Assembly: GCA_963823665.1 (NCBI GenBank)
Contig: CAWGMQ010000005.1
Span: forward strand, 160,001 to 224,000
Direction: 5' to 3'
Source: an uncultured Planctomycetota bacterium
GTDB taxonomy: Bacteria; Planctomycetota; Planctomycetia; Isosphaerales; Isosphaeraceae
DNA length: 64,000 bases
The position numbers and the translations under genes were made by a program. Under the pieces are notes generated by a model. That model saw only the letters and a program-made list of their open reading frames with translations. It was not told where the DNA came from and did not search any database. Shown one piece after another: positions 21,519-37,240 of the stretch; within the stretch, counting starts at the first letter, position 1; every line of letters begins with the position of its first letter.

Positions 21519-22295
21519 TCACGTTCCGAACTCGGGGCGGCGCGTGGAGAGCTGAGATTGAAGTCGCTGGATGATCGACGAATGCATCTGCGAGACACGC
21601 GACTCGCTCAGGTCCAGCGTCGCACCGATTTCCTTCATGGTTAATTCTTCGTAATAGTACAATATAATTATGAGGCGTTCGTTGCGTGAGAGCCCCTTGG
21701 TCACCATGCGCATCAAGTCTTTGCGCTGGAGGCGGCGGGTGGGGTCTTCACCCTTCTTGTCCTCGAGAATGTCGATCTCGCGGACGTCCTTGTAGCTATC
21801 GGTCTCATACCACTTCTTGTTCAGACTGATCAGGCCGACGGCGTTTGCATCCATCGCCATCTTCTCGAATTCTTCCATCGGCAGACCCAGAAGCCCTGCC
21901 AGCTCGTTTTCAGTGGGAGGCCGGCCGAACCTGGCTTCGAGCTCCTTGCGGGCCTCTTCCATCTTCGTGGCCTTGGAACGCACCAGTCTGGGAACCCAGT
22001 CCATGGTCCGCAGCTCATCGAGCATTGCTCCGCGGATTCGCGGCACGCAGTAAGTCTCGAATTTCACGCCGCGGGTGAGGTCGAAGGCGTCGATCGCATC
22101 CATCAGCCCAAACACCCCGGCCGAGATCAGATCGTCGAGATCGACCCCCTCGGGAAGGCGCTGCCAGATCCGTTCGGCGTTATATTTGACCAGCGGCAAG
22201 TAGCGTTCGACTAGATGATTTCTCAAGTCCGTGGTGGGGTGCTCCTTGAACTCCCGCCAGAGTTCGGTTACATCCACATCCACCTTTGTTGACAT
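21519..22295 (-). CDS. fliA: FliA/WhiG family sigma28
   Basis: DDLISAGVFGLMDAIDAFD, KFETY, RIRGAMLDELRTMDWVPR, LYYYEELTMKEIG, SESRVSQMH. Confidence 0.95.
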   Translation of the reverse strand: MSTKVDVDVTELWREFKEHPTTDLRNHLVERYLPLVKYNAERIWQRLPEGVDLDDLISAGVFGLMDAIDAFDLTRGVKFETYCVPRIRGAMLDELRTMDWVPRLVRSKATKMEEARKELEARFGRPPTENELAGLLGLPMEEFEKMAMDANAVGLISLNKKWYETDSYKDVREIDILEDKKGEDPTRRLQRKDLMRMVTKGLSRNERLIIILYYYEELTMKEIGATLDLSESRVSQMHSSIIQRLQSQLSTRRPEFGT

Positions 22296-22703
22296 CCTGA
22301 CCTCCATGTCGGCTGCGCGAGAGGCGGCACTTCCTGTGCAAAAAGGGCCTTCACGTCACGTCGCATGCCCAAGAGCGGCTCATCTTGGCCGCAAGTCGCA
22401 AGTCTCGACGTGTCCCGACCCGGTAGACCCTCGCGAAACCGCAAGAATCGACCTGCCAGGCCCTTCTCCTCTCGCCATCCAGGGAACTCCCACCCGATTT
22501 GGTATCGGACCGCTTGCTCAATCGGCTTGAGTGATATCATCACAACAACCCGAAAAATCGACCCGAACGGCCTCCTCGCCTCTTTAATTTGGCGCACTCG
22601 CGCCCAATCACGACACGCTCTCCCATTACCTCTCCCCCTTCCAGACGGCTCGTTCCTGAGAACGGCTCGCCCGCGTCGACAGTCGAATCGCCCGCCTTGT
22701 TCG

Positions 22704-23660
22704 TCAATCGCCCCCCCCTCCGCGCGAGAGCAAGAATCGGGCCTCGAGGGCGGCCCGTATCCCCCCTCCCTTCTTTCGATCCGGTGGATACCTCTCCACG
22801 CAGAGCGCCCGCGCGATGCGCCGCATGCCGCGCGATGCCGCCGCGGACGGATACGCCGTCATGAAGGGACGCCGGCCGCGGACGGCCAGCGGCACGTGGG
22901 AATCGAGCCGAATGAACCCCGGCCCAAGAGGCGCAACCACCGCGCCCCGGAATTGCCGACTGATGTTGATAATCTCATCAAGAACTTCCACTCCCTCGGC
23001 GTGCGACCGTGCCTGGTTGACAAGAACTCGCACCCGCGCGATCCGCAACTCGTGGAACCGCCTGATCGCTGCATGAGCATCCGCCAGCGAGGTCGGCTCC
23101 GTCGTGCTGACCACGACGACGTCGTCGGTTGCCGCCGCCAGACACGCAGCTCCCGAGCCCAGCCCCGAGCCTGCGTCAATCACAACGAAGTCGAAGTCAA
23201 GGGCGACCTCCTTCACTTCGCGCGCCAGTCGCTCCGCCGCATCGCCCAGATCGTTCAGGCTCGTGCGGGCTGCATGCGCTCCGGGCACCACGCGGATTCC
23301 GCAGTGCCCATCCACGATGGCATCCGCGATTTCGCACCGGCCTTGCAGCACGTCGCCCAGATCATAGCGCGGCGAAAGCCCGCCCAGGAGATCGAGATTC
23401 GCCAGCCCCACGTCGCCGTCCAGAACCAGCACGCGCTGGTCCATCTCGCCGAGCGCGATCGCCAGGTTCAGAACCAGGTTCGACGTCCCGACCCCGCCTT
23501 TACCGCTCGTGAAGAGCAAGCAATGTGCGCTCGCCGGCGCACTCGCCGTTTGAGCGCGCTCCCCTGCGCAGGATGTCCCGCCGCCGGGCAGTATGCCCGC
23601 ATCAGTTTGAGCCGGCTTGGCACCAACGAGCTGCCGCAGTTTTTCAGCCTGGTCCGACAT
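22704..23660 (-). CDS. flhG: FlhG/FleN (MinD-like) protein with degenerate P-loop
   Basis: MSDQAEKLR N-terminal motif, SGKGGVGTSN, DGDVGLANLD, IDAGSG, EPTSLADA; lies between flhF and fliA. Confidence 0.88.
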   Translation of the reverse strand: MSDQAEKLRQLVGAKPAQTDAGILPGGGTSCAGERAQTASAPASAHCLLFTSGKGGVGTSNLVLNLAIALGEMDQRVLVLDGDVGLANLDLLGGLSPRYDLGDVLQGRCEIADAIVDGHCGIRVVPGAHAARTSLNDLGDAAERLAREVKEVALDFDFVVIDAGSGLGSGAACLAAATDDVVVVSTTEPTSLADAHAAIRRFHELRIARVRVLVNQARSHAEGVEVLDEIINISRQFRGAVVAPLGPGFIRLDSHVPLAVRGRRPFMTAYPSAAASRGMRRIARALCVERYPPDRKKGGGIRAALEARFLLSRGGGGD

Positions 23661-23675
23661 ACGCACTCCTCATAT

Positions 23676-24824
23676 TCAACCCAGGTTTTCCTGTCTGAGG
23701 ATCAGGCGAGCCAGCCGCTTGCGGTCTGCCGGCTCAATGTCATCCGGAACGCCCTGGCCCGTCGTGATGTAGCTGACCGGACGGCTCGAAAGCCCCAGCA
23801 CCGAAAGCAGGCCGCCCAGGCTACCCGCCTCGTCGAGCTTGGTGAGAATGAGCCGGTCCACCTGGACGGTCGAGAAACGCTCCAGCGCCGACCGCAGGCT
23901 TCGCTCCCCGGCGACCGCACTCAAGACGAGATAAACCTCGTCCGGCCGTGCTTGCTGGAGGAACTCGGAGAGCTCGCGGATCTTCACTTCGTCACGAGGG
24001 CTTCTCCCGGCCGTATCGATGAAGACCAGGTCGACTGGCCCCAGCGCGTCGAGCGCTTGAGGCATCTCGCTTGGATCGTTCACAACCGCCAGCGGCAGGT
24101 CGATGATCTCCGCATAGGTCTTGAGCTGCTCGACTGCGGCAATCCGGTAGGTGTCCACCGTGATCAGCCCGACGCGCGCTCCCTGGGCAAGCTTCAGCGT
24201 CGCCGCCAGCTTTGCGACTGTCGTCGTCTTGCCCACCCCGGTCGGGCCTACCAGAGCCACTATCCTCCGCGTGCCCGCCACCGGCCGGATCGGCGGCGCA
24301 ACCGGAATGCACTCCTCCACCGCAGTCGATAAGGCCGCGCGAATCATGTCGGGGTGCGCCAGATCTTCCGGCTCGAGCGCGTCGGCGACGAACTGCACGA
24401 GACGACGGCAGAGCACCTCGGGAACGTCGGCCTCGATCAATTGCGAGTAAGTCGGTACGAGCGCACCCGGCAGGTCCGGAAGCAGGTGCTCGATATGCCC
24501 GTGCCGGCTCAGGCTCTCGACCATCGCATGCAGCTTCCCCAGCTCTTCGCCAAATTGCACATGCATTCCGGACGGAGCTTGGGCTGCGTGCCCCTCGATC
24601 GACGAAATGACCTTGGGCACCCCACGGCCTTCGCGGTTCGCCGCGGCGTCGGCGGGCATCGTGTCGCTGGCCGTCACCTCCACCGAAGACCGCGGGCCCA
24701 GACCGAACAGGCGCCGCCGGCGCACCTCCCGAGCGGAGAGGATCACCGCGTCGCCGCCTAAGTCGCGGCGCACGCGTGTCATCGCCTCCTTCATCGTGCT
24801 GGCTCGGTACGTTTTCGAGCGCAT
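23676..24824 (-). CDS. flhF: SRP-type GTPase FlhF
   Basis: N-terminal KTYRASTMKEA..VRRDLGGDAVILS; GPTGVGKTT, DTYRIAAVEQL, DTAGRS, TKLDE, GQGVPDDI. Confidence 0.95.
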   Translation of the reverse strand: MRSKTYRASTMKEAMTRVRRDLGGDAVILSAREVRRRRLFGLGPRSSVEVTASDTMPADAAANREGRGVPKVISSIEGHAAQAPSGMHVQFGEELGKLHAMVESLSRHGHIEHLLPDLPGALVPTYSQLIEADVPEVLCRRLVQFVADALEPEDLAHPDMIRAALSTAVEECIPVAPPIRPVAGTRRIVALVGPTGVGKTTTVAKLAATLKLAQGARVGLITVDTYRIAAVEQLKTYAEIIDLPLAVVNDPSEMPQALDALGPVDLVFIDTAGRSPRDEVKIRELSEFLQQARPDEVYLVLSAVAGERSLRSALERFSTVQVDRLILTKLDEAGSLGGLLSVLGLSSRPVSYITTGQGVPDDIEPADRKRLARLILRQENLG

Positions 24825-24876
24825 TAACCCGGCCTTTCCGCTGTGTATGAACCGGTTTCGACCGGCGAGCTTTCAT

Positions 24877-27111
24877 TCATACAAGGGCCTCTGTCGTGGT
24901 GTAGGTCGTCACCACTTGCGGCTCTTCCTCGACCACCTTCCCCAGGATCTCGAGCGGCGTATCCCGCGGAATCTCGCGCTGAGAAAGGACCACCAGCCGC
25001 GGCAAGTCGGCCCGCGTCAGGTCTTTGAGCACGGCGCGAGCTGCGGCCGTCGTCAGGATCACCGGCGGATACCCTCCCTCGATCAGCGTGCTGACGGCTT
25101 CCGCGACAGCGTGCACGATCGCTCGGGCTGTTTCTTCACCCAGCGACTCGGCTGGTCGTGCCTCGCCCTGGCTCGCCGCGGCCAGCCGATCATCAAGCCG
25201 CGCGCCCAGGGCAGCCACCCGCAGGCGGCCATCCGGCCCGCGGTACTTCTCCGTGATCTGCCGTGCCAGGCTCCGACGAACCTGCTCGGTCAAAAGATCG
25301 ACGTCCTTCGTCTTCGCGGCGTGCACCGCCAGCGTCTCGAGTATTGTCTCCAGATCGCGAATTCCCACGCGTTCTCGCAGCAGGCTCTGCAAGACGCGCT
25401 GGAGCTCGCCGGCGCGCAACAGCCCCGGCACAACCTCGGTCGCCAGCGTTGGTGCCGATGCGCGAACCCGGTCGAGCAGCCGTTCGACCTGCTCGCGAGT
25501 CAGGATCTCGTCGGCATGGCTCGCTACAATTTCGCCGAAATGGCCCGCGATCACAGCGGCCGTTTCGAGCACCCGGCAGCCCGCCAGCTCGGCAAGCTCG
25601 CGTCCGTCGGCGTGAATCCACACCGCCGGCTGGCCGGTCACGGGGTCAACGCCGTCGCGGCCGTCAGGGCGAGTCACCAACCCCGCCGGCGGCACGGCCA
25701 GCAGCCGGCCCGCATGCGCGACCCCCTGCCCGACCACCATCCCACGAATCTTGACACGATACTCGTGTGGCGCGAGTCCGACTTGATCGTGAATCCGTAC
25801 CTGGGGAACGATCAGGCCCATCTCGCGGGCCACCCGCTGACGCACCGTCTTGAGCAGGTCAAGCAGGTTCCCGCCGCGCGTCGGGTCGGCCAGCCCGATC
25901 AGCCGGAAGCCGATCTCGAGCTCGAGCGGATCGACGTGCAACAAGTCCTCCATCCGGTCCGAACCCGCATCCGGCTGCGTGGCACCCGCCGCTTGCACCG
26001 ATTTGCTGCTCTTGGGACGAGCCGCGATCAAAGGCGATCGTTCATCGGCCCGCCCGGCTGGCAAAGCCACCGGTCGCGAGCCCCCTGCCGGAAGGCCTTC
26101 GTCAACTGCATAATCGTCGCCGCGACGAATGCCGCCGGCGATCGCCGCGGCCCCGAGCGCACCGCCCAGCGTCAGAAGCGGCACCTTTGGCAGCGGCGTC
26201 AGCGCCATGAAACCCAGGAACGCCGCGGCGGTTCCCAGCACGGCCGGCTTCGAGAACAACTGGACGGTCACATCCTCGCTCAAGTCCGTCGACGACGACG
26301 ACCGGGTCACAATCAGCCCCGCCGCCAGAGAGATCAAGAACGCCGGAATCTGGCTGACCAGGCCGTCGCCAATCGTCAGTTTCGTGAATACATTCACCGC
26401 ATCGCCCAAGCTCATACCGTGATTGATGACGCCCAGGAACAGACCCCCGACAATATTCACCAGCAGGATCACCACACCCGCAATCGCATCCCCGCGCACG
26501 AACCGGCTCGCCCCGTCCATCGCCCCGAAGAAATCGGCCTGACGGTAGACGCCCTCCCGGCGCCGGTGCGCCTCGTGCTGATCGATGAGCCCGGCTTGCA
26601 GGTCCGCATCGATCGCCATCTGCCGACCCGGCAGCCCGTCCAGCGTGAATCTCGCCGCCACTTCGCTGATTCGCGTCGCCCCCTGAGTGATCACCACAAA
26701 CTGGATCACGACCAGGATCGAGAACAGGATCACCCCCACGATCACCTGATCACCCGCGACAAATGAGCCAAACGTCTTGATCACATCACCCGCCGCATTC
26801 ACGCCTTCCTCGCCGCCTTTGGTCAGCACCAGCCGCGCCGTCGCCACGTTGAGCACCAGCCGGGTCAGCGTCGTCACGAGCAGGATCGTTGGAAACGCGC
26901 TGAACTCCTGGGGCGTGCGAATCGCCAGCGTGGTCAAGAGCACCACCACCGCGATCGTCAAATTCGCCGATAGAAGGACATCGAGCACCCCCGCGGGCAC
27001 CGGGACGACGAGCACAAGGATCGCGCCGATCAAGGCAACCGGCATCACCAGTCCGCGGAGGTAACCTCCGGCGGAACCGGCTTCACTCGCGCTCGGCGTT
27101 CTGGGAGGCAT
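24877..27111 (-). CDS. flhA: Export gate protein FlhA
   Basis: FSAFPTILL, RLVLNVATARL, RISEVAARFTLDGLPGRQMAIDADL, FFGAMDGASRFVRGDAIAG, IGDGLVSQIP, LLRERVGIRDL; GGAGG RBS before ATG 27111. Confidence 0.95.
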   Translation of the reverse strand: MPPRTPSASEAGSAGGYLRGLVMPVALIGAILVLVVPVPAGVLDVLLSANLTIAVVVLLTTLAIRTPQEFSAFPTILLVTTLTRLVLNVATARLVLTKGGEEGVNAAGDVIKTFGSFVAGDQVIVGVILFSILVVIQFVVITQGATRISEVAARFTLDGLPGRQMAIDADLQAGLIDQHEAHRRREGVYRQADFFGAMDGASRFVRGDAIAGVVILLVNIVGGLFLGVINHGMSLGDAVNVFTKLTIGDGLVSQIPAFLISLAAGLIVTRSSSSTDLSEDVTVQLFSKPAVLGTAAAFLGFMALTPLPKVPLLTLGGALGAAAIAGGIRRGDDYAVDEGLPAGGSRPVALPAGRADERSPLIAARPKSSKSVQAAGATQPDAGSDRMEDLLHVDPLELEIGFRLIGLADPTRGGNLLDLLKTVRQRVAREMGLIVPQVRIHDQVGLAPHEYRVKIRGMVVGQGVAHAGRLLAVPPAGLVTRPDGRDGVDPVTGQPAVWIHADGRELAELAGCRVLETAAVIAGHFGEIVASHADEILTREQVERLLDRVRASAPTLATEVVPGLLRAGELQRVLQSLLRERVGIRDLETILETLAVHAAKTKDVDLLTEQVRRSLARQITEKYRGPDGRLRVAALGARLDDRLAAASQGEARPAESLGEETARAIVHAVAEAVSTLIEGGYPPVILTTAAARAVLKDLTRADLPRLVVLSQREIPRDTPLEILGKVVEEEPQVVTTYTTTEALV

Positions 27112-27491
27112 CCTCTTCCTCCACCACCCTGAAACGTGCCGCGGGCTTCCTGCCCGGAATCGAAACGCACTTGCAAAGGAAAACGGCCCGAGGGCCGATC
27201 GACGTGCTTTGTTCAGGTGGCCCTCGGCCCAGCCAATCACGGCCGCTGACACCCACGTCCAACCGATCGTCATCGTCGGGCCCGCTGTTGCGGACCGTTC
27301 CGTCGACAGCCAGTCGGAGGTCCGCATTTGCGGACCCTACCAGGAAAACGAACGGGAAGTGCAGAGTGTTGAGACGTGTGGCGGGACGATACCGCCGATC
27401 GAGGCGTGTGTCCAGACCGAATGTGAAGACCACAGCACGCCGCCACGTCAGGTCGGAACGGGATTTCAGCCGAGCCATTCGCAGGTGCGCC

Positions 27492-28514
27492 TCAGGTAGC
27501 AGGCCAGATCGCCGCGAGGTCGGCGATCAGCTCCGCCGCGATCGCAGAGCCGGCCGCGGGCCGGACCGCCAGCCGCTGCGCCAGGAGCGTCTCTTCGATT
27601 TGAGGAAGGCTGCCTGCCTCCGCGCGCCTTCGCAGCCGCAAGCCCACCGCCCCCTTCGCGACCGTCCGCACCAACACCTTCCGCGGCGGCGGCCCGCCCG
27701 CCATCACCAGCGTCAGCCCGGCCGCGCCGTTCAACAGGAAGGCCGCACCGGCAAGCAGCTCAGGTGAATCGCCGCGCATCGATCGCGCCACGCGCTGGCG
27801 CTGCGCCCGAGCCGCCGGGTCTCCCTCCATCACCCGCTGGTCCTCCCGGTGCTCTTGCGTGCTCGTTCGCAGCATGGCCTCGAAACGCCGGTACCTGAGC
27901 ACATAATCGAACAATCCCAATGTCAGCAGCGCCCCGCCCAGAATACATGATGTGCGCAGCACGATATGCCCCGCAGCCGCCGCCAGCTTCGGCCCTTCAA
28001 GGTGGCTCTGAAGCAGGAAATCACCCCAGCTCCCCCGGAGCACCCATACCGAGCCGACGACCAAGACAATCCCTTTCGCCACCGACCACGAAGATTGAAC
28101 GAGTCGCGTGGAAAGACCCTGGCCGTTCGAGAACCTCCACAGACGCTTCGGGTCCGGAACGATCTGCGAAGGCGCCCACAACCCACGAACCTGGGCCTGA
28201 TGTGCCGCGACGGACGCAACGGCGAAACCGCCCAGAATCGCCGCCATCGGCCACGCCAACCCTAGCGCGAGCCTGCGAGTATGAGTCGCGACAGCCAGGG
28301 CATCACCGGGTAATTGGGCCGGATGCACCAGCGATTCGCGCACCGCTCCCGCCAGCGCCACCGCCAGATCATGCCCGAAGAATCCCAGCAACGTCACCGC
28401 CGCCAGCCAACCCACCGCCGCCGTCAGCTCCGGGCTGTGCGCAGCCTGCCCCTGCTCCCGCGCCATCTGGCGCCGGCGTTTCGAAGGCGGCTGCGTACGG
28501 TCCTCAGACATCAT
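27492..28514 (-). CDS. flhB: FlhB/EscU-like export protein lacking the NPTH motif
   Basis: EDRTQPPSKRRRQMAREQGQAAHSPEL, four TM segments, STQEHREDQRVMEGDP; C-domain present but NPTH absent. Confidence 0.88.
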   Translation of the reverse strand: MMSEDRTQPPSKRRRQMAREQGQAAHSPELTAAVGWLAAVTLLGFFGHDLAVALAGAVRESLVHPAQLPGDALAVATHTRRLALGLAWPMAAILGGFAVASVAAHQAQVRGLWAPSQIVPDPKRLWRFSNGQGLSTRLVQSSWSVAKGIVLVVGSVWVLRGSWGDFLLQSHLEGPKLAAAAGHIVLRTSCILGGALLTLGLFDYVLRYRRFEAMLRTSTQEHREDQRVMEGDPAARAQRQRVARSMRGDSPELLAGAAFLLNGAAGLTLVMAGGPPPRKVLVRTVAKGAVGLRLRRRAEAGSLPQIEETLLAQRLAVRPAAGSAIAAELIADLAAIWPAT

Positions 28515-29285
28515 CGAAAATTGCTTTCATACGTCTGCCAAACGTGCGTGACCATCGCAAACAGGGTTGTCAGACTGAGCAGAATCAGGACGACGCCGAT
28601 CAGCGTGCGGATGGGCAGCGCAAGTGCGACAAACGGCAGCGACGAAGCCGCTCGGCTCAGCCATCCGATGATGATTCCCGCCAGGCACAGTGCCACCGCG
28701 ACCGGTGCCGCCGCCTGTAGCGCCAGCTCGAGCGCATGGCCAAGCTGTGCGAACGCGGCGCGGCCAGTCTCGGTTGAGATCACCAGGCCGCCAGCGGGCA
28801 CGGCCTGATAGCTGTCGATGAGAACCTTGACCAGGATCATCGGGCCGCCGAGCCCCAGAAACGCCACCACGGCAATCCACCCGTAAAGCCGGCCCAGTGG
28901 GCCGATCTCCTCGCCGGTCTCCGGGGTCCAGCAGCGTCGAGGTCGAAAGACCGGCCTGTGCGGCCACCAGCTCACCGCCCATCCTGACTCCGGCAACGAT
29001 CGTGGCAGCGAGATAGCCCAGCACCGCCCCGGCAAGCAGTTCCAGGAACGACAATGACGCCACGCTCTGCCAGCTTGCGGGGGCAACGATCGTGGGCTCG
29101 ATCACCGGAATCAACACCAGAGCGAGTGCCGCGGCCAGCCCGATCCGAAACCGCCAATCGAGCTCCGGAATCGCCAGCCCCGGCGCCGTCAGGCACAGCC
29201 CCAGCACACGCGCAAGCACAAGTGCACCCGCCGAAGCGTGCCCGAGCAGCCAGAACCAGTCGAGCTCACCGCTCTCCCAAGGCAC
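28511..29285 (-). CDS. fliR: FliR, probable 1-bp frameshift in the run at ~28923-28926
   Basis: LVLARVLG..APG, RFRIGLA, ELLAGAVLG, GGELVAAQAGLS in one frame; DPETG..FLGLGG..LQAAAP..LPIR in the next. Confidence 0.85.
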
Positions 29286-29323
29286 AACTCAGGTCTCCCG
29301 AAGCAGAATCGCACATATTCACG

Positions 29324-29590
29324 TCAAAGCATTTCAGGAATCGACCTGAACAGTTCCGCAGCGAACGAAACCCAGCGGCTCAAGAGCCACGGCAGAATCA
29401 CCAGCAGCACGAGTGCAACGCCGACCAGCCGGGGTACCAGCGCGACGACCGGCTCATGCAACTGCGTCAGCGTCTGCCCCACGTTGACCAGCAACCCCAC
29501 AACGAGAGCCGCAGCCAGCAGCGGCCCACCCAGCAGCAAGATCATCCGCAGCGCTTTGCGCGTCCAGTCGATCGCATGAGTCAATTCCAC
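29324..29590 (-). CDS. fliQ: FliQ
   Basis: GTG start; ILLLGGPLLAAALVVGLLVNVGQTLTQLHEPVVALVPRL; 88 aa. Confidence 0.9.
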   Translation of the reverse strand: MELTHAIDWTRKALRMILLLGGPLLAAALVVGLLVNVGQTLTQLHEPVVALVPRLVGVALVLLVILPWLLSRWVSFAAELFRSIPEML

Positions 29591-29594
29591 TTGA

Positions 29595-30545
29595 CTACGG
29601 CCCCCCGGAAAATGTGGAAAGCAGCATCGTCGCGACCAGCATCCACCCGTCCGCCAGCACAAAGACGATGAGCTTGACCGGCGTCGCCACCAGCGACGGC
29701 GGCAGCATGAAGAGCCCCGTGGCCGCCAGCACCGCTGACACCACCAGATCGATGACCAGGAAAGGTAAATAGATAAAGAAGCCAATCAAGAGCGCCGTCG
29801 TCAGCTCGCTCAGGAGATATGCCGGCGCCACCACATAGAGCGGCACGTCTTCCGGCCTCGTCGGATCGGTGTCTGCCCGGCCAGGGCTCCGCGGTACGGC
29901 GTAATCATAAAGCGTCTCCAGGTATTCTTGATGCTTGGTTGCGATGATCTGATCAACCATGAACGCCTTGATCGGCTTGCTGCCCGCGGCCCAGGCCTGC
30001 GAAGCGGATAACTCGCCGGCGGCATAAGGGCGGATCGCGTCCTGATGCACGCGCTCGGCGTGCGGCTTCATGACCAGCGCCGTCAAGAGCAGCGCAAGCG
30101 CGGTCAAGACCTGGTTGCCCGGGATTTGCGGGCTCCCCAGCGCCTGCCGTAGCAGCATGAGCACAATGTTGATCCGCACAAAAGCCGTGACCATCAAGAC
30201 CGCGATTGGCGCCAGCGAGATCAGCCCGAAGAGCGCCACCGTCTGCACCGTGTGCATCGTGTCCTCGCGCCGGCCGAGCAGCGATTCCGGTGAAGGCGAA
30301 GATGCTTCCAGCGCCGCCGGCCGATTAGGCTCGATCGCCGCCGCGTCCGACGCTGCATCCGCAGTCTTCACCGCGCGGTCGTCCCCCGCCGCGCTCACGG
30401 CCTTCGAATCCGCACCTCGTCGTTCCGAAGCCTGTGAACCGGACTGTGCACGGCCACTCTCCGGAAATTGAAGAACGGCCAGCAGCGCGCATGCCGCGGC
30501 AAACGTCGCCCGCGCGATCAATGGCCGCATGCTGGATCGGCTCAT
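29595..30545 (-). CDS. fliP: FliP
   Basis: LMVTAFVRINIVLMLLRQALGSPQIPGNQVL, PAYLLSEL, YLPFLVIDLVVSAVL, PVKLIVFVLADGW. Confidence 0.93.
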   Translation of the reverse strand: MSRSSMRPLIARATFAAACALLAVLQFPESGRAQSGSQASERRGADSKAVSAAGDDRAVKTADAASDAAAIEPNRPAALEASSPSPESLLGRREDTMHTVQTVALFGLISLAPIAVLMVTAFVRINIVLMLLRQALGSPQIPGNQVLTALALLLTALVMKPHAERVHQDAIRPYAAGELSASQAWAAGSKPIKAFMVDQIIATKHQEYLETLYDYAVPRSPGRADTDPTRPEDVPLYVVAPAYLLSELTTALLIGFFIYLPFLVIDLVVSAVLAATGLFMLPPSLVATPVKLIVFVLADGWMLVATMLLSTFSGGP

Positions 30546-31126
30546 GACACTTCTCCTTGCCCGCGGACCGGCTCTGTCGGAGAGAGAGCGATGTCATCCA
30601 GCTCGCTGATCAGTGTCGGAGCACCCTGCGGCCCGGTCCCCACCAGCAACACTCTGCCCCCCGCGCGCACCAGGTAAACCGCGTGCTTGGGTGAAAGGCT
30701 CACTCGCGAAACGACATGCAGCGCCCCTGACCCCGGCCGCAAGTTGAACCGCCGCGCCGCCAGAGCAAGCCCTCCCACTGCGCCCAGCAACACCGCAACG
30801 CTCGCCAGTGCCAGGTACCACGCGTCAGACCCGCGTTCGCGCCCAGCGCTCGAAGTCCGCCGCGGCAAGAGCAGCCGCGATGATGGCCGCGGCTGTTCCT
30901 CCACGTTCCGCGATTCCTCAACGTCGTCCAAGGCACCGCCGCCAGTGACGGATGCGATTCCGCCAGACTTCACCGGTTGATCCCCTCGTGTCTCCCGCAG
31001 CGCAGCATCCTCGCCCTTCGCCATGACAATCAGCCCGCCCGCGCCAAAAAGCAGAAATACGACGATCGCATGAGGAGTCAGCCCCGCAAGAGATTTCAGC
31101 GTCGCTCGATCTGATCGCAATGTCAT
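30542..31126 (-). CDS. fliO: FliO/FliZ-like protein
   Basis: TM segment followed by LHVVSRVSLSPKHAVYLVRAGGRVLLVGTG; directly upstream of fliP. Confidence 0.8.
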   Translation of the reverse strand: MTLRSDRATLKSLAGLTPHAIVVFLLFGAGGLIVMAKGEDAALRETRGDQPVKSGGIASVTGGGALDDVEESRNVEEQPRPSSRLLLPRRTSSAGRERGSDAWYLALASVAVLLGAVGGLALAARRFNLRPGSGALHVVSRVSLSPKHAVYLVRAGGRVLLVGTGPQGAPTLISELDDIALSPTEPVRGQGEVS

Positions 31127-31145
31127 CGCCAGCCCCCCCGACAAT

Positions 31146-31953
31146 GGGCTGTTGAAAACTTGCCGTACAAGGAGCGGAGATTTCCCGGCGCGAATGCAGC
31201 GCCAAACTTCCCCCGCTTTAGAAGGGGGGGCCAGGGCGGCCTGTTGAAAACTTGCGATCTAACGAACGATGATTCCCCCCCGCATGTGTTGCGCCAACTT
31301 TCCCCCCCTTTAGAAGGGGGGGCCAGGGGGGGGCCGTCCCAGCGGCCGCCGTCAAAAAACCGTCGCGCAACAGAAAACGCCGAATCGTCCACCTCGAAAT
31401 TCCCCAATACGGCCCGCTTTTCATCAGCCCAGCGCCAGCGTGGCCTGTTGATAACTTGCAGAATACGGAGCGGAGATTTCCCGCCGCGAATGTTGCGCCA
31501 ACTTTCCCCCCCTTTAGAAGGGGGGGCCAGGGGGGGTCCGTCCCGGCGGCCGCCGTCAAAAAACCGTCGCGCAACAGAAAACGCCGAATCGTCCACCTCG
31601 AAATTCCCCAATACGGCCCGCTTTTCATCAGCCCAGCGCCAGCGTGGCCTGTTGATAACTTGCAGAATACGGAGCGGAGATTTCCCGCCGCGAATGTTGC
31701 GCCAACTTTCCCCCCCTTTAGAAGGGGGGGCCAGGGGGGGTCCGTCCCGGCGGCCGCATACCGAGAGTCGCTCGACCTCGCCACCCCGACTCCTGCTCGT
31801 ACTCGTCTTCCCGCACTCCGTGCCCCGTGCTCCGCCGTCCGTAGGCCGGGGGGGGTTCATTCCGGCGGCCGCAATCACGAAACCGTCGCTCAACAGAAAG
31901 CGCCGAATCGTGCACCTCAAAATTCGCCAACACGGCTTTCTTTTCATCAGCCC
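31146..31953. mobile_element. Tandem array of ~204-bp MITE-like elements
   Basis: Units start at 31238, 31442 and 31646 (204-bp period) plus a partial unit at 31146. Ends GG(G/C)CTGTTGA(A/T)AA and TTTTCATCAGCCC are inverted repeats. Internal hairpin CCCCCCCTTTAGAAGGGGGGG. Confidence 0.75.
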
Positions 31954-31996
31954 CCCGGATACCACTCGCGGTCGATCGACCCAGCCCGAACATTTC

Positions 31997-32061
31997 ATCA
32001 ATCGAAGCGCTTCGCGATTCAATTGATCGGAGCAATCAAATCGCGAAGCGATTCGATTGAT
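31997..32061. other. Long imperfect inverted repeat (stem-loop) just after the fliG stop
   Basis: ATCAATCGAAGCGCTTCGCGATT...AATCGCGAAGCGATTCGATTGAT. Confidence 0.7.
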
Positions 32062-32070
32062 CGGACCCGT

Positions 32071-32700
32071 TCAGACGACCACTTCCTCGCTTCCACTCGT
32101 GTCCGGCAGGCTGATGCGTCCCCGGTCATACAGCCGGCGCAGCTTCTCCGCGATCTCATGCTGCGCCGCTTCCGAGTCCGACAGCCGGAATGGACCTAAT
32201 CGTTCGAGTGCGTGCCGCAGCCGCTCGGATGAAGAAGCCGCCAGCGCCGAGAGCACCTTGGTCCGCACGGATGCGGCACCCCCCGCCAGCGCCAGCGCCC
32301 AGGTGTCCGTGTCTTCTTCGTCGAGCGCCGCGCGAATGTCGGGTTCGCTCATTCGCATCAGGTCGTCGAACACGAAGCACAGCCGCCGCAGGCCTAGTCC
32401 GTAGAACTCTTCGAGCACGGCCGCTCGTTCCGCCGGGTCGACGCGTTCGAGCCGGGCGATCTCCCATGTCACCGACTCCACCGCAGCGCGGTCGAGGTGC
32501 GTCAAAAGCTGAGACGCCAGCGATTGGTCCAGGCTCACCAGCACGATCGCCGCCTTGCGCACCGGCGAAATCTCCGATGCATCCTCGCTATAGGCGTACG
32601 GCGCGTTGCCAGCGGTCTCATCACCGTCGTCCTGAAGGAAACCGCCGCGCCCCGATTCGCGCAGCCGGCCCGGCTCGATGTCTTCGCGCGTCGCCGTCAT
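32071..32700 (-). CDS. fliG: Mini-FliG: N domain fused directly to C domain (209 aa)
   Basis: RKAAIVLVSL...AVLEEFY (FliG_N-like) runs straight into FVFDDL...ALAL...GPFRLSDSEAAQ..I...RRL...G.I (FliG_C-like). ATGA overlap with fliF. Confidence 0.85.
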   Translation of the reverse strand: MTATREDIEPGRLRESGRGGFLQDDGDETAGNAPYAYSEDASEISPVRKAAIVLVSLDQSLASQLLTHLDRAAVESVTWEIARLERVDPAERAAVLEEFYGLGLRRLCFVFDDLMRMSEPDIRAALDEEDTDTWALALAGGAASVRTKVLSALAASSSERLRHALERLGPFRLSDSEAAQHEIAEKLRRLYDRGRISLPDTSGSEEVVV

Positions 32701-34325
32701 GACGAGCGGCCCCCCTGCCCGACCCAGCGCTGCAGCACGCTGGCCGCGGCTTCCGGATTGCGCTGAATCAGCTCGCGAACTCGCTCGGATGGGCTGGACT
32801 GCCCGACCGAGCCCGCGTGGTACCGCCGCGACCGGTCCGAAACCTCGGGTAGCCGCGAGGGTCTGCGGGCCAGGTGAAACAGCGAGCCTGCAATGGCCAG
32901 AATGGACACGCCCGCACCCACCGCCCCCACGATTCCCCATTCCATCAATCGCTGGCGCGTGTCGGTCGTATCGGGAATGACCGTGGGCCGGCTCAGCGCA
33001 ACTTCGTCCGCAAACGTGCCCACTTCGACCTTCCAGGAATCGGCATCGGGCAACAACAGCGAGATCGCGGTGAGGATGGATTTCTCGGTGCGATCGGCCA
33101 TCGCTCGCAGCTCCTCGAGCGAAGGCTTGCCCTGGTCGCCGCGGATTTCCATGTTGAGATAGAAGCTCCGCGGCACATTCACAACCACCCGCCCCCGCTC
33201 CTTCGAAGTCGAAGTATCCCCCCCTCGAGTGGGTGGCACCGGCTCTGCCAGTGTCCCACGATCACCCGCTACTCGGGGGCGTGCCACCGGCTTTCCTGGT
33301 GCCCCACGATCACCCGCTCCTCGGGGGGTTGCCACCGGCCCCGCCAGTGTCTCGCTCTCGAGCGAAAGCGGCCGATTGACGGCGATCAACGAGTGGGAGC
33401 CGCTCGGGTGTTCGTCAATCCCGCCGGCATGGCTCGGCCCAGGCTCGTGATGCGCCTCCCCCGCTCCGGCGCCCTTGGCGCTGGCAAAGCTTCCCGACCC
33501 GCCGGGTATCTTCGTGACAATCTCGCCCGCGTGCGGCGAGATCACCTGCACTTGCACGCGCACTCCCTTGATCCAGTCGAGCTTTTCGAGGATTTCCTCG
33601 GTGATTTCTTCCTCCCGGGCGCGATTCCGCGAGTGGTCACGAAGGGCGGGGTTGCCGGGATCGAGGTAACGCATGCCGCGATGGTCCATCAGCGTGATCG
33701 ACCCTGTTTCGAGCCCGGGAACCATACCGCCCAGGAGCGAGAGGATCGCCTGCACGCTCCGTGACGGAACCGCGCGGCCTCTCTCGGTCTCGACATACAC
33801 AAGCGCGGAGGCTTTAGGGCTGATGCGAGAGAATGGCTGCGCGCGGGGACGATTGATGGATACGAAGGACGAAAGCACGCCTTCCTGCTCTCCGATCAGC
33901 CGCTCCAGCATGCGTTCGAGCCTCACTTTTTCGTGATATTCACGCTCGATCTCTCCGTCAAAAAAGCTGTCCGAGCTCCGATCCTCGCGTATGTCCTTGA
34001 TCGAGCGCGGTCCGAGGTCGAGCTTCGCGACGCTCTCGGCCGCCTGCTCGAACTGCCCTGGCGCGACTTCGACGCGCCGTTGGTCGTCGATCCGGTACGC
34101 AACTCGCTGTTTCTCCAGCGCGCGAACGACCGTGATCAGCTCCTCGGAGGAAAACCTCTTGCCCATGTTGAGGTAGCGCACGCCAGAAGGAGACAGGTTG
34201 CCGGCACCCCAGTAGCTCGCCGCGCCGAGCACCAGCAAGACGGCCGAGGCCAGTCCCCACCTGACCGCACGCCGCTGGGCGGCGATTGGCTGCCACAGCC
34301 GCGCCACTCCCGCGCAGTCGTTCAA
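32697..34325 (-). CDS. fliF: MS-ring protein FliF (divergent)
   Basis: Two TM helices, RBM1/RBM2-like region (LERLIGEQEGVLSSFVSI..KASALVYV..VPGLETGSITLMD), C-terminal NPEAAASVLQRW; TTG start assumed. Confidence 0.82.
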   Translation of the reverse strand: MNDCAGVARLWQPIAAQRRAVRWGLASAVLLVLGAASYWGAGNLSPSGVRYLNMGKRFSSEELITVVRALEKQRVAYRIDDQRRVEVAPGQFEQAAESVAKLDLGPRSIKDIREDRSSDSFFDGEIEREYHEKVRLERMLERLIGEQEGVLSSFVSINRPRAQPFSRISPKASALVYVETERGRAVPSRSVQAILSLLGGMVPGLETGSITLMDHRGMRYLDPGNPALRDHSRNRAREEEITEEILEKLDWIKGVRVQVQVISPHAGEIVTKIPGGSGSFASAKGAGAGEAHHEPGPSHAGGIDEHPSGSHSLIAVNRPLSLESETLAGPVATPRGAGDRGAPGKPVARPRVAGDRGTLAEPVPPTRGGDTSTSKERGRVVVNVPRSFYLNMEIRGDQGKPSLEELRAMADRTEKSILTAISLLLPDADSWKVEVGTFADEVALSRPTVIPDTTDTRQRLMEWGIVGAVGAGVSILAIAGSLFHLARRPSRLPEVSDRSRRYHAGSVGQSSPSERVRELIQRNPEAAASVLQRWVGQGGRSS

Positions 34326-34580
34326 ATGTCACCCTGGAACTCGGGCGATCGATGCTCGCCATCAACCCTCCTCACGACATGATCGAGCCGGTCGCCAGAG
34401 ACCGCGCCACCGGCGGGCAGTGAGTTATCCACTTTTCGCCCATCTTGTCAATCGCGGCAGCGCATACCCCCGCACCCCGTGGGGGCGCCGCCGCCGCAGG
34501 CGGCAGTGGGTCGCGCGAGCAGCCAGATGGCTGCGCAGCCCAGCGGCGTTCTCTTCGCCGCAGCCGCCGATTCTGCTGCT

Positions 34581-34640
34581 GCTCCTGCTCATAATCTTAA
34601 TCCTAATCCTAATCCTAATCCTGCTCCTAATCCTACTCCC
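34581..34640. repeat. Degenerate hexamer array (AATCCT/GCTCCT) x ~10
   Basis: gctcct gctcat aatctt aatcct x4 gctcct aatcct actccc. Confidence 0.85.
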
Positions 34641-34669
34641 GCCTCTCACCCCCCACCCCCAACAGCCAG

Positions 34670-35123
34670 TTCGTTTTGTACATTCGACGAGCGTCCTTAC
34701 CCCACAAGGACTACGGGAACGAACCAGCATTCCTCCCCCTGTGCGGAAGGCGTCGCCGCAGGCGGTGGTGGGGGGCTCGCGCACTGACAACCGCGCACCC
34801 CAGCTTCCCCGCGCGCCGATTTTCCGTCTCGCCTCAAATCCGTGACCTCAGTGTAATCCGTGGTTCAAATTCTGATCTGACTCCGCCAATCAAAGACCCA
34901 ACATCCTCCGTCTCCCCGCCCCATCCTGATCTCTGTGACCGCTGAGATCTCCGTGGTTCACTGTTCGCCGCGGGTCTCGGGCACCCGAAGGGTCGCCGCC
35001 GCCATTGCGACCGAAGGTCTCCAACTACTCCGACTCCCATCTCCCATGTTCACCCGTCCACCCCGACGGACCACTTCGTTTTGTACATTCGCCCCGGGTC
35101 CTTGCGCCACAAGGACTACGGGA
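34670..35123 (+). repeat. Two copies of a ~49-bp motif (34670-34718, 35075-35123)
   Basis: TTCGTTTTGTACATTCG..GTCCTT.C.CCACAAGGACTACGGGA in both copies, with an internal GTCCTT/AAGGAC stem. Confidence 0.75.
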
Positions 35124-35563
35124 TCGCCATCACCCGGTCCACATCGCGAGCCACGGGCCAAATCGACGCCCAAACCTTGCCAGCAACCGCCCGGCATTGA
35201 CCCAAAATCACCACGGCGCGCTCCACCCCCCGAGTCCGAACCGTTCGTCCTCCGCAAGTGCACACGCGAAAACGGCTTCGGTCTCCCCCTCCGCTTCTTG
35301 CCCCCTGGCTCAAAATGATAACGTTTGATAGCACCACAAAGGTTCTCGTCTGATCCCCCGCTCACCGTTCTCAGCGCGGGCGCAGACCGCTGTATCCCTC
35401 CCCCCAAAGCCCCCCCACCGTAGGCGAAGTGCCGCCGCACGCGGCGGTGGCGGGGCGTGCAGGCCGATGGCTGCGCGGCCCGACAGTGTTCCCGTCGCCG
35501 CAGCCGCCGCTAGAAGGCATCTGGAATGACGATTGGAAAAAGACATCTCGCGATGTGGTAATG

Positions 35564-35598
35564 GATGAGATGAGATGAGATGAGATGAGATGAGATGA
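35564..35598. repeat. (GATGA)7 microsatellite
   Basis: Seven perfect copies. Confidence 0.95.
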
Positions 35599-35913
35599 AG
35601 TGAGATTCGACCCACGGACCAACCAGCACGGTTGCCCAAGTGACGGTCGGGCTCACCCCCACCGGCCGCACACGCACTTTCCCCTATTAATATATGCGCC
35701 CACTTTCGGTCGTTGGCCATCTCTCAATCACACGTGTAAATCTTTGCGTAACGCACAACTTCAATCGCAATAGGCAATTAACCGCTGCGTTCAGGCGGAG
35801 AATTCCCATTCTGATGTGCCCGTTCAATACGTTTTGAAACGGCATACCTCCGACCCGTTTGCGCCGAAGATGTGGAATTCGTCCATTTCGAGTCGGATTC
35901 CTCCACCACGCAT

Positions 35914-36648
35914 TCAGACCAACTTCCTGAGCAAGACTTCCTCAAAAAAGTCCTTCGCGACATCGATCGGTTTCACATCAGAATCGATAACCATCCCGGA
36001 TGTCGGCCGGTCCCAGCGCCTTTGGATGATTCGTTTATCAACAACGAGCAACTCTCGTATCGAGATCGGCGTGTTCGGCAAGTCGTCGAGCCTGACGGCC
36101 GAATCGCCATTGGGGTGCTGCTCACTGACCATGATGTGCACCCACGGTCCGTCGGCGCCAATTGTCTCATCGAGTGGTGACCAGAAGTGCTTCCCGAAAA
36201 AAAAGATGTACCAAACGATCTTGTCGTTTTTACGGAACCACACCCTGAAAAACCAAGTTCTCTTTGCCCCGCCTCCCGCAAGCAGGGTTTCCCAGGTCGG
36301 CTGATCAATCACCTGATATGGGTGAACTTGCACCTCGACCGACGCGTTCGCTTTTCGCAATGCGGCGTCCCCAAGATTCAATGCCTCCTGGGCCTCGCGT
36401 TTTCGGCGATTGTCGTAGATCGTCCTTGTCTGCAGAATGAATCGGGTCTCGCGAATCGTGAGCGTGTTTCCTTCGATGGCATTGCTGCTGAAAACTCGCT
36501 CACTTAATAAGCTGTCCTTGAGTTGCCGCAGAACGTCTTCGCTCAGAGGACGAATGTCGTTGATCTGGCGGGCCAGATCGGCAACGTCGTCCAGCATGGC
36601 GTGCGTGACTTCATCCAGTTGAAGATCCGCCCGTCCAATGAGTTCCAT
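35914..36648 (-). CDS. Fic-family protein lacking the catalytic core (in-frame internal deletion suspected)
   Basis: RPLSEDVL...VFSSNAIEGNTLTIRET...REAQEALNL is a Fic N-region; no HPFxDGNGR motif follows. Confidence 0.65.
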   Translation of the reverse strand: MELIGRADLQLDEVTHAMLDDVADLARQINDIRPLSEDVLRQLKDSLLSERVFSSNAIEGNTLTIRETRFILQTRTIYDNRRKREAQEALNLGDAALRKANASVEVQVHPYQVIDQPTWETLLAGGGAKRTWFFRVWFRKNDKIVWYIFFFGKHFWSPLDETIGADGPWVHIMVSEQHPNGDSAVRLDDLPNTPISIRELLVVDKRIIQRRWDRPTSGMVIDSDVKPIDVAKDFFEEVLLRKLV

Positions 36649-37240
36649 GGCTTGTCTCGTAGGAGAGCTCGTCGCCCGGATCGTTGTAATCGGGTCAACC
36701 TCGACTGCGCGTGATACACAGCGTCTAAACAACTTCGCAGGTTTGCGACACCAGCCACCGACCGGCTCAGAACCCGATTCTAGCATTCGCACGGCGTACG
36801 TTCCCTATTGGATTGGTAATCCCGCGCCGGAACCTGCGAGGGGCGACAGAGCCTGCCGAGGCTCGATTTACCCAGCTTCCGGGCACCAAGGAACGGCGAA
36901 TCCGAAGGGAGGGAGCTTCATTTCCCGGCTCTCCGACACAGACGGAAGCCGGAACGTTGATGACTTGATTTCGGCTTCTCGGGGAAGCACAATCGCCTGG
37001 AATTCCGGCAGGTTCTTCGCGAAAGCTAACGGCTTCTCTTGAAGCGAATGCGCTCGGGGAGTCGCCCATGATTGACTCTGAGCGATTCAAACCTCTCGAC
37101 GGCCCATATCAAGTGCCAAGGTGCAAGCTCGGAGATAAGCTTCTCATGCGCCGAACGCTCGACTGACCAGGAGCATCCGCGGCGATGTCGACTATTTCGA
37201 GAGAGCTGCCGCTCGAAGTCGAGCGTGTGTTGGAGGTCAA

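Follow-up and report, generated by a model that had tools for sequence, protein, structure and literature searches.

The stretch of DNA analysed here (the window) comprises 64,000 nucleotides (G000:C5:160001-224000) of a 16.5-Mb, 92%-complete assembly, G000, from an uncultured planctomycete of the family Isosphaeraceae, non-swimming bacteria of soils and wetlands. The named relatives of a linked marker gene belong to Singulisphaera, Paludisphaera, Aquisphaera, Tautonia, Tundrisphaera and Isosphaeraceae bins, in agreement with that family. Its minus strand carries a cluster of genes for the membrane base and protein export gate of a flagellum, together with flhF, flhG and the gene for the sigma factor FliA (sigma-28), and it is the composition, distribution and possible function of this gate system that we describe. 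The gene order fliF-fliG*-fliO-fliP-fliQ-fliR-flhB-flhA-flhF-flhG-fliA, given in a preliminary description of the window, was borne out by Pfam and NCBIfam profile searches. The features are as follows (window coordinates).

32697-34362, minus strand: fliF, MS-ring protein (PF01514, E 1.9e-20; alignment; C-terminus conserved in relatives)
32071-32700, minus strand: mini-fliG, 209 residues (Pfam FliG_N and FliG_C; alignment with full-length planctomycete FliG; structural model)
31145-32065, no strand: 204-nt tandem repeats with G/C hairpins (no Pfam match)
30542-31126, minus strand: fliO (PF04347, E 1.3e-8)
29595-30545, minus strand: fliP, export gate (PF00813, E 1e-61)
29324-29590, minus strand: fliQ (PF01313, E 5e-20)
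28511-29285, minus strand: fliR, split by a frameshift near 28900-28940 (PF01311)
27492-28514, minus strand: flhB without the NPT(H/E) autocleavage motif (PF01312; alignment)
24877-27111, minus strand: flhA, full length, open frame reaching 27327 (PF00771, E 8.7e-232; TIGR01398, 759 bits versus 490 for SctV)
23676-24824, minus strand: flhF, GTPase of the signal recognition particle type (TIGR03499 above cut-off; G1/G3/G4 motifs)
22704-23666, minus strand: flhG, Walker A lysine replaced (GKGGVGTS; motif reading)
22503-22530, minus strand: putative sigma-28-type promoter TCAAG-N16-TCCGATA before fliA (sequence motif)
21519-22307, minus strand: fliA, sigma-28 (TIGR02479, 267 bits)

The gap between fliG and fliO holds the 204-nt tandem repeats only, with zero Pfam-matching open reading frames (ORFs), and upstream of fliF there is, as previously described, no flgB/flgC/fliE ORF, nor is there any Pfam-matching ORF. 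In a flagellated member of the class the order is flgC-fliE-fliF-fliG-fliH-fliI-fliJ-fliK-flgD-flgE-flbD-motA-motB-fliL-fliN-fliO, from which we conclude that the present cluster arose by deletion; the repeats, which in comparison with relatives are specific to G000, are filler at the former fliH-fliN position. The probable start of fliF is an ATG with AGGAGG at 34362, past the end of the cluster as initially given (34325). The fliF frame is broken near 34310, where an otherwise identical short-read contig has an insertion that the assembly lacks. The reads compared span this break, which is probably a long-read assembly error; the fliR frameshift, which lies outside their coverage, is probably, though not provenly, an error of the same kind, and fliR is a single ORF in 19/19 relatives, a genome of the same genus included.

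The gate genes score as flagellar and not as injectisome genes, both for FlhA (scores above) and for FliP (188 bits versus 157-177 for SctR), and YscJ_FliF matches over cut-off came from FliF alone, with no SctJ ring gene. FlhA was found in 112/121 Isosphaeraceae genomes and FliP in 73/74, each of them in 47/47 good genomes, and FliG_C in 71/74. The FlhA gate motifs (40/41 rows), the FlhF G1 motif GPTGVGKTT (39/41) and FliA, which passed TIGR02479, are intact as originally claimed. The ratio of nonsynonymous to synonymous substitution rates (dN/dS), obtained with a simple counting method, ranged from 0 to 0.67 across all 105 gene-pair values, every one of them below 1: it was at most 0.06 for FliA, which is 83-99% identical across the family, and 0.05-0.14 for the anti-sigma factor FlgM (see below), FliP, FliQ and FliR were all under purifying selection, and FliF and FliO evolved fast, at up to 0.67. 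The preliminary description had argued against random decay and had named dN/dS near 1 as its mark; by that measure decay is refuted, unless the genes are silent. Slow erosion of a flagellar operon with no present function would account for the two frameshifts in the assembly, the loss of flhG from 16/40 loci, the separation, in several genomes, of fliF-flhB from flhA-fliA and the ratios of FliF and FliO. We nevertheless regard it as very improbable, given the 47/47 retention, the 105/105 values below 1, the intact fliR in 19/19 relatives and a precise in-frame deletion in FliG that several genera of the family have in common. Moreover, in planctomycete family f5, where FliP and the ATPase are each present in 20/69 genomes, members without ATPase are also without FliP; since these non-flagellated members lose the gate outright, retaining it is not the default after loss of motility.

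The view that the system is non-rotary agrees with profile searches of family genomes in which the positive controls worked: the export-ATPase C-domain PF18269 and flagellin were found in 0/74 genomes each, and the rod/hook C-domain PF06429 in 0/23. FliI (TIGR01026 over cut-off) and FliH were found in 0/5 genomes tested, FliE and FliK (over cut-off) in 0/4, and the injectisome ATPase SctN was not found by the same searches (PF18269, 0/74; TIGR01026, 0/5). A single planctomycete MotA query gave no match in G000 and only matches with E >=0.005 in 3/5 genomes, with no MotB search made. These absences rest on profiles, and MotB, FliJ, FliL, FlgN, FliS, FliD, the P/L rings, SctC, SctD and YmdB lay outside the searches. 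A full-length FliG was not found elsewhere in G000, the only FliG_C match being the mini gene. By these searches the genome has no match for fliI, rod/hook genes, fliC, MotA or full-length fliG, although it does encode an SpoA-domain (FliM/N-type) protein, discussed below. By the features tested, the system is neither a flagellum nor an injectisome. Matches to the FliI profile were rejected as export ATPases, being below cut-off and resembling, by position and score, ATP synthase subunits and Rho (names inferred). Two ATP-synthase-like alpha/beta gene pairs in G000 (C6, ~1565000-1569000; C10, ~326000-332000), also seen in G052, suggest two ATP synthase operons. In one genus a gene upstream of fliF at first resembled a further flhF, but its sequence is that expected of FtsY, and it was likewise discarded.

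Several of the retained proteins are remodelled. In mini-FliG, as aligned, FliG-N is fused in frame to the C-terminal helical domain by deletion of ~170 residues (middle/ARM region), and the charges of the torque helix are mostly gone. In FliG the middle domain binds FliM. The model of mini-FliG superimposes on FliGn (5tdy) with a root-mean-square deviation (rmsd) of 1.2 Å over 63 columns and on FliG-C (8ucs) with 1.7 Å over 88 columns. A second, ~100-residue ORF with FliG_C only follows fliG in 22/74 family genomes and in G135 (e.g. L051:7617-7925) and is absent from the window. FliF has lost the ordered beta-collar region, in place of which stands Pro-rich low-complexity sequence, and has a conserved C-terminal FliG-binding helix. 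The FlhB motif NPT(H/E) is present in 0/23 family rows. The FliP gasket reads GLFMLPP in G000, of Leu/Phe rather than Met type; gaskets with at least two Met occur in 44/44 ATPase-positive rows versus 2/15 family rows. FlhF has a conserved N-terminal domain of the FliG-interaction type, which in Shewanella, according to the available text of one report, contacts FliG at its M and C domains (PMC11236974). A predicted complex of the FlhF N-terminus with mini-FliG scored 0.28 against the tool's mark of 0.32. The conservation of the N-terminal domain makes FlhF-dependent localisation probable. The preliminary description had these changes affect FliG, FlhB, FlhG and FliP together. All four are indeed altered, but the gene at the flhG position in a flagellated relative is also degenerate, and the change in FlhG may not be specific to the Isosphaeraceae system. 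Within the family flhG is optional: it is present in 24/40 relatives' loci, and in 15 loci the interval from flhF to fliA is too short to hold it.

The only known flagellar export substrate found in the family, and the most obvious one for the gate, is FlgM, the anti-sigma-28 factor, which is exported late. In G000 its gene lies outside the window, on contig C7 (locus L206; PF04316 over cut-off), and a profile search found it in 59/59 family genomes. The protein has 93-96 residues, and its N-terminal third is as conserved as the remainder (80-91% identity over the first 35 residues in 6 pairs). Directly before flgM, in 4/4 family loci inspected (L202, L203, L205, L206), there is a conserved gene that we take from its look to be MlaD/Mce-like; the G000 copy had no Pfam match.

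From the upstream regions of flgM we read off the motif T(A/C)AA-N15-17-(G/T/A)(C/T)CGAT(A/T), which was then tested elsewhere. It occurs ~220 nt upstream of fliA in 31/40 loci in strict form, the other 9 having one-base variants at the same place (mean in shuffles, 0.07), which suggests that fliA is autoregulated through a sigma-28-type promoter. Before flgM it was found in 11/17 cases, a count that is not independent, the motif having been fitted there. Upstream of the gate genes it was absent (0/22 fliF, 0/22 fliO, 0/41 flhA). The gate had originally been placed under sigma-28 control; since the motif precedes fliA and flgM and not fliF, fliO or flhA, the gate is more likely a regulator of sigma-28 than its target, and the putative hierarchy runs gate, FlgM, sigma-28, the reverse of the earlier wording.

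Genome-wide, the motif outnumbered reversed-pattern controls (52 versus 18 in four genomes; 38 versus 8 in five), whereas a pattern with the 15-nt enteric spacing gave no signal (14 versus 11 controls) and was dropped; the spacing here is 16-17. Some 54 distinct motif loci were examined. Those found across genera precede fliA, two TolC-family proteins, a cyclophilin-domain surface protein, a conserved element situated ahead of enolase and a non-coding element of 150 nt; among the matches seen once are those at genes for a protein of polysaccharide export and for a FadL-type porin. No flagellar structure genes are among the candidates. Many of the matches are due to chance, and the list is a lead to a possible sigma-28 regulon. 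The ~150-nt element stands directly behind the motif in L246, L252 and L275 (G001, G090, G108; locus position ~1500), is 83-89% identical in these three genera and ends in a strong terminal hairpin; with no match in Rfam, it is a candidate sigma-28-dependent small RNA. Upstream of enolase, the motif and a conserved structured-looking element occur in five genera (L245, L264, L270, L280, L283), with no Rfam match in the three that were scanned.

The combination of gate and FlgM is not confined to Isosphaeraceae. A sample of 301 genomes of the class contains 17 from other families (f2, f9, f17 and f18 and members of f3 and f4) that have FliP and neither ATPase nor rod/hook genes, and FlgM was found in 16 of these gate-only genomes. 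G262, G179, G286 and G298, likewise without an ATPase match, were not counted among the 17 because they have 1-3 rod/hook genes, G298 keeping its gate-only label in the trees and in the FlhB count. The clusters were shortened differently elsewhere, with a full FliG beside fliO, with FliF-FliG fusions or with no FliG match. The fusion proteins, 630-700 residues long, occur in gate-only or second-copy systems (L117 in G135, L122 in G256, L133 in G230). Eight genomes combine a native-type second gate with a complete set of flagellar genes whose FliP falls in a separate clade, with an FlgM match in 8/8, whereas none of 4 genomes examined with foreign-type FliP only has FlgM; this comparison rests on chosen examples, among which kin are not independent. 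Many planctomycetes (L302-L321; G140, G146, G221, G230, G245, G260, G340, G356 and others) swim, or could swim, by a second flagellar system of the separate FliP clade, which is also the only type in f5, f7 and f14, and in them the native one has shrunk to a gate.

Loss of the FlhB cleavage motif accompanies this state throughout: the motif is present in 0/30 gate-only rows and 0/6 native second copies versus 26/31 flagellar-type rows, and FlhB ends at <=263 residues in 18/36 gate-only or second-copy rows. The five flagellar-type exceptions are one close variant, one protein truncated at the edge of its contig, and the proteins of G361, G172 and G259, three genomes that proved rodless when tested. 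An intermediate state is seen in G361, G172, G259 and G214 (L326, L328, L333), where the ATPase and FlgM are kept, rod/hook genes were not found and the FlhB motif is lost in the three examined. A four-gene tree (FliP, FliQ, FliR, FlhB-N) was built from 57/85 rows, leaving out the long-branched copy 2 of G158, 18 rows that were near-duplicates or were removed by thinning, and rows without FliQ. It requires 7 state changes, at least 4 of which are imposed by strong branches, and a single origin appears in none of the bootstrap trees; the 'flagellar' labels are based on ATPase and FlhB motif, with rod genes checked in some genomes only, and the deep nodes are affected by composition bias and long branches. 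A tree of FliP only has 9 changes, of which strong branches force just 1, and it therefore cannot exclude a single origin, as the four-gene tree does. The gate-plus-FlgM state has thus evolved repeatedly.

These data bear on the earlier proposal of a nanotube or membrane-extrusion platform. Nanotubes are themselves contested, having been put down to dying cells. The cluster has the full set of six CORE genes (FliO, P, Q, R, FlhB, FlhA), and bacteria with only these genes have been proposed to use them for nanotubes, as stated in the available text of PMC6456723. According to the same text, nanotubes form largely without the need for FliF or FliI, yet the Isosphaeraceae keep FliF, FliG-N, FlhF, FliA and FlgM; the repeated loss of FlhB cleavage and the link to FlgM would also be left unexplained, and we consider this function improbable.

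A second locus raises another possibility. On contig C3 of G000 (locus L077) lies a gene for an SpoA-domain protein of ~400 residues, present in 49/60 genomes, whose best NCBIfam profile is that of SctQ (TIGR02551, 92 bits, under the cut-off of 100.8); its nearest Atlas clusters are from Myxococcota, and the top structural Atlas row is a FliM family. The absence of FliM/N noted at the outset holds for the cluster; elsewhere the genome has this SpoA protein of FliM/N type, which looks SctQ-like. For the product of the preceding gene, the model of which is helical, the closest fold is that of PscK (6uie; Z 9.1, a value below the tool's mark for caution, rmsd 4.0 Å, 166 aligned), FliG-MC being similar as well, and Foldseek gave no match with E <=0.001; its nearest Atlas clusters include proteins of Chlamydiota. 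The pair (G000:C3, ~1183745-1186373; L077:7446-10074) stands behind a response regulator and a hybrid kinase, and the SctK-like gene is frameshifted in the assembly. No other injectisome gene was found, SctC, SctD and the needle being outside the searches.

The gate might then export one or more other proteins to the periplasm or be the seed of a surface structure other than a flagellum. The SctK/SctQ-like pair would in that case be a sorting platform taken over from elsewhere, and the FlgM loop would ride along or report on the assembly. Within the class sample, SctK/SctQ-like genes are confined to the family (SctK-like, 51/59 genomes versus 0/242 others), the FlhA C-domain is full-length and an early-type FlhB C-domain is retained. 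The pair is, however, unlinked to the gate, carries the sigma-28 motif before 1/52 SctK-like genes, was not found in 8/58 relatives with gate and FlgM, the near-complete G059 and G015 among them, and is missing from the remaining gate-only lineages; neither an axial-protein family nor a conserved unknown ORF inside the cluster was found. Export of other substrates thus seems unlikely, though it deserves to be kept in mind.

The interpretation that we prefer, with a probability of about 0.5, is that a flagellum-free gate driven by the proton-motive force removes FlgM and thereby turns on an envelope regulon of sigma-28. What was once the membrane base of the planctomycetes' own flagellum would have been reduced to an export gate that builds nothing and serves as a regulatory valve. 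FliF and mini-FliG would house FliPQR-FlhB-FlhA, FliO would aid assembly and FlhF would probably position the complex. Proton flow through FlhA would power low-rate export of FlgM (94 residues) through the inner membrane to the periplasm, without ATPase, rod, hook or ruler. Removal of FlgM would free sigma-28, which would amplify itself through the promoter before fliA, reset the loop through that before flgM and drive a non-flagellar regulon in which genes of the outer membrane and the cell surface are prominent. The analysis shows the gene content, the selection, the altered motifs, the positions of the promoters and the repeated origin; from them we infer FlgM as the substrate, its export, the energy source, the localisation and a signal that opens the gate.

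A minimal set for FlgM export in Bacillus subtilis was reportedly defined by Calvo and Kearns in 2015 as FliF, FliG, FliOPQR, FlhAB and FliK, and the Isosphaeraceae gene set, with a ruler added, would equal it. In a Salmonella strain that lacks rod, hook and Fluke, FlgM reaches the periplasm independently of FliK once the FlhB C-domain is removed, and substitutions that destabilise this domain also make FliK unnecessary (PMC13344023, available text). Export can dispense with FliHIJ, whereas it requires that protons flow through FlhA, as far as the accessible part of PMC4230889 states. Taken with the reported Bacillus set, these results favour a flagellum-free FlgM exporter.

Other observations weigh against FlgM export. 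Within the limits of the same sources, export without FliHIJ is strongly impaired (PMC4230889), late export in Salmonella requires near wild-type FliI activity (PMC12802181, available text) and normal late export there needs FlhB autocleavage (PMC13344023). The FlhB C-domain in the family is degenerate yet covalently attached in 12/14 rows. The altered FliP gasket possibly means no transport whatever, and the gasket is also degenerate in some other lineages. Nine membrane-machine genes are a costly way to remove one small protein. The motif before fliA was not found in G127 or G298, and the motif count before flgM carries the dependence stated above. The gate-only genome G341 gave no FlgM match; weak FlgM-profile matches (E 1e-4 to 1e-3) in at least 8 genomes without FliP mean that FlgM may persist without a gate, and FlgM was not found in the outgroup flagellar loci examined, which leaves the weak matches in f5 unexplained. 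Finally, the SctK/SctQ-like pair, for which the valve offers no explanation, hints at other substrates.

The same co-retention and promoter data would also fit control without export, in which FlgM is bound at the cytoplasmic FlhA ring, or passed to a protease there, and the gate is a scaffold or a sensor of membrane state. Control of FlgM at the FlhA ring without export is said to have been proposed for Helicobacter pylori by Rust et al. in 2009. The uncleavable FlhB, the missing ATPase and the altered gasket would then be irrelevant. Purifying selection on the channel-forming FliP, FliQ and FliR, the intact proton-coupling motifs of FlhA and the long conserved N-terminus that FlgM retains beyond its sigma-binding part all speak for transport, however, and we judge this alternative doubtful, slightly more so than export of other substrates.

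The valve may be part of a wider pattern, proposed here as a tentative idea that falls somewhat short of even odds: planctomycetes would repeatedly have made the flagellar export apparatus a stand-alone, secretion-gated switch, in which a polar, proton-driven gate exports FlgM and so times a sigma-28 envelope and surface programme, plausibly at the bud-to-mother or attachment transition. In Isosphaeraceae the SctK/SctQ pair may replace the C-ring, which would make the system a flagellum-injectisome hybrid.

In the window, the region upstream of fliF (34400-35620) contains AGGATT and ATCTC simple-repeat runs and a ~60-nt duplicated stretch. Beyond it lies a minus-strand ORF (35914-36792) with no Pfam match, the first half of which resembles the beginning of a Fic-family protein and is joined to unrelated sequence.

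If the valve is real, it is a natural minimal type III exporter without ATPase, ruler or axial parts, and pure gene regulation joins motility and injection as a third use to which the flagellar export apparatus has been put. It would offer a natural test of whether late substrates can be exported without an ATPase and of the role of the FlhB C-domain. It would also point to a candidate regulator, and to a candidate regulon, in budding planctomycetes, whose life cycle is poorly understood. That FlhB cleavage was lost again and again upon loss of rod genes is independent support for the switch model derived from Salmonella genetics.

Published accounts touch on the system only in passing. A comparative genomics study of four Isosphaeraceae mentions, in its available text, just a 'poor representation' of flagellar genes (PMC5352709). 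FliP and FlhA matches of Isosphaera pallida are tabulated in the supplement of the nanotube paper, the consulted main text of which does not name planctomycetes (PMC6456723), and the main texts of two recent surveys of flagellar loss and ancestry are, in the parts available, silent on them (PMC12199754, PMC13277936). Our literature search, largely at title level and with most subscription papers, including many strain descriptions, outside its scope, found no description of a gate-plus-FlgM system in non-flagellated planctomycetes.

Partial type III machines are known from other bacteria: the chlamydial remnant is not known to have flagellar FliPQR, and the needle-less type III secretion system of Myxococcus is derived from an injectisome and has an ATPase. 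The Isosphaeraceae system shares with both the lack of a filament or needle, and its SctK and SctQ relatives are Myxococcota/Chlamydiota-like, but its gate is flagellar, ATPase-less and tied to FlgM, whereas the chlamydial FlhA/FliF/FliI remnant keeps the ATPase (PMC2830194, available text). In Streptomyces, too, a factor of the sigma-28 family, WhiG, outlives flagella and serves non-flagellar genes; as described in the accessible text of PMC12871210, c-di-GMP and RsiG control it and an export gate plays no part, while the Isosphaeraceae keep canonical FlgM and the gate. With the nanotube CORE (PMC6456723, available text) the system has six genes and the lack of a flagellum in common, to which it adds FliF, mini-FliG, FlhF, FlgM and sigma-28, and its FlhB is remodelled. 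It is a real, conserved, selected and repeatedly evolved system that in its putative function resembles the flagellar FlgM/sigma-28 checkpoint of Salmonella and Bacillus subtilis minus the structure: FliF, FliG, FliOPQR, FlhAB, FlhF, FliA and FlgM are the same, as are sigma-28 promoters before flgM and fliA, whereas no ATPase, ruler, rod, hook, filament or stator was found in Isosphaeraceae, the FliG middle is lost and FlhB is uncleavable. It also resembles the laboratory strain that exports FlgM without a rod and without the FlhB C-domain, insofar as the available text of PMC13344023 describes it, except that the Isosphaeraceae version is natural and fixed across the family.

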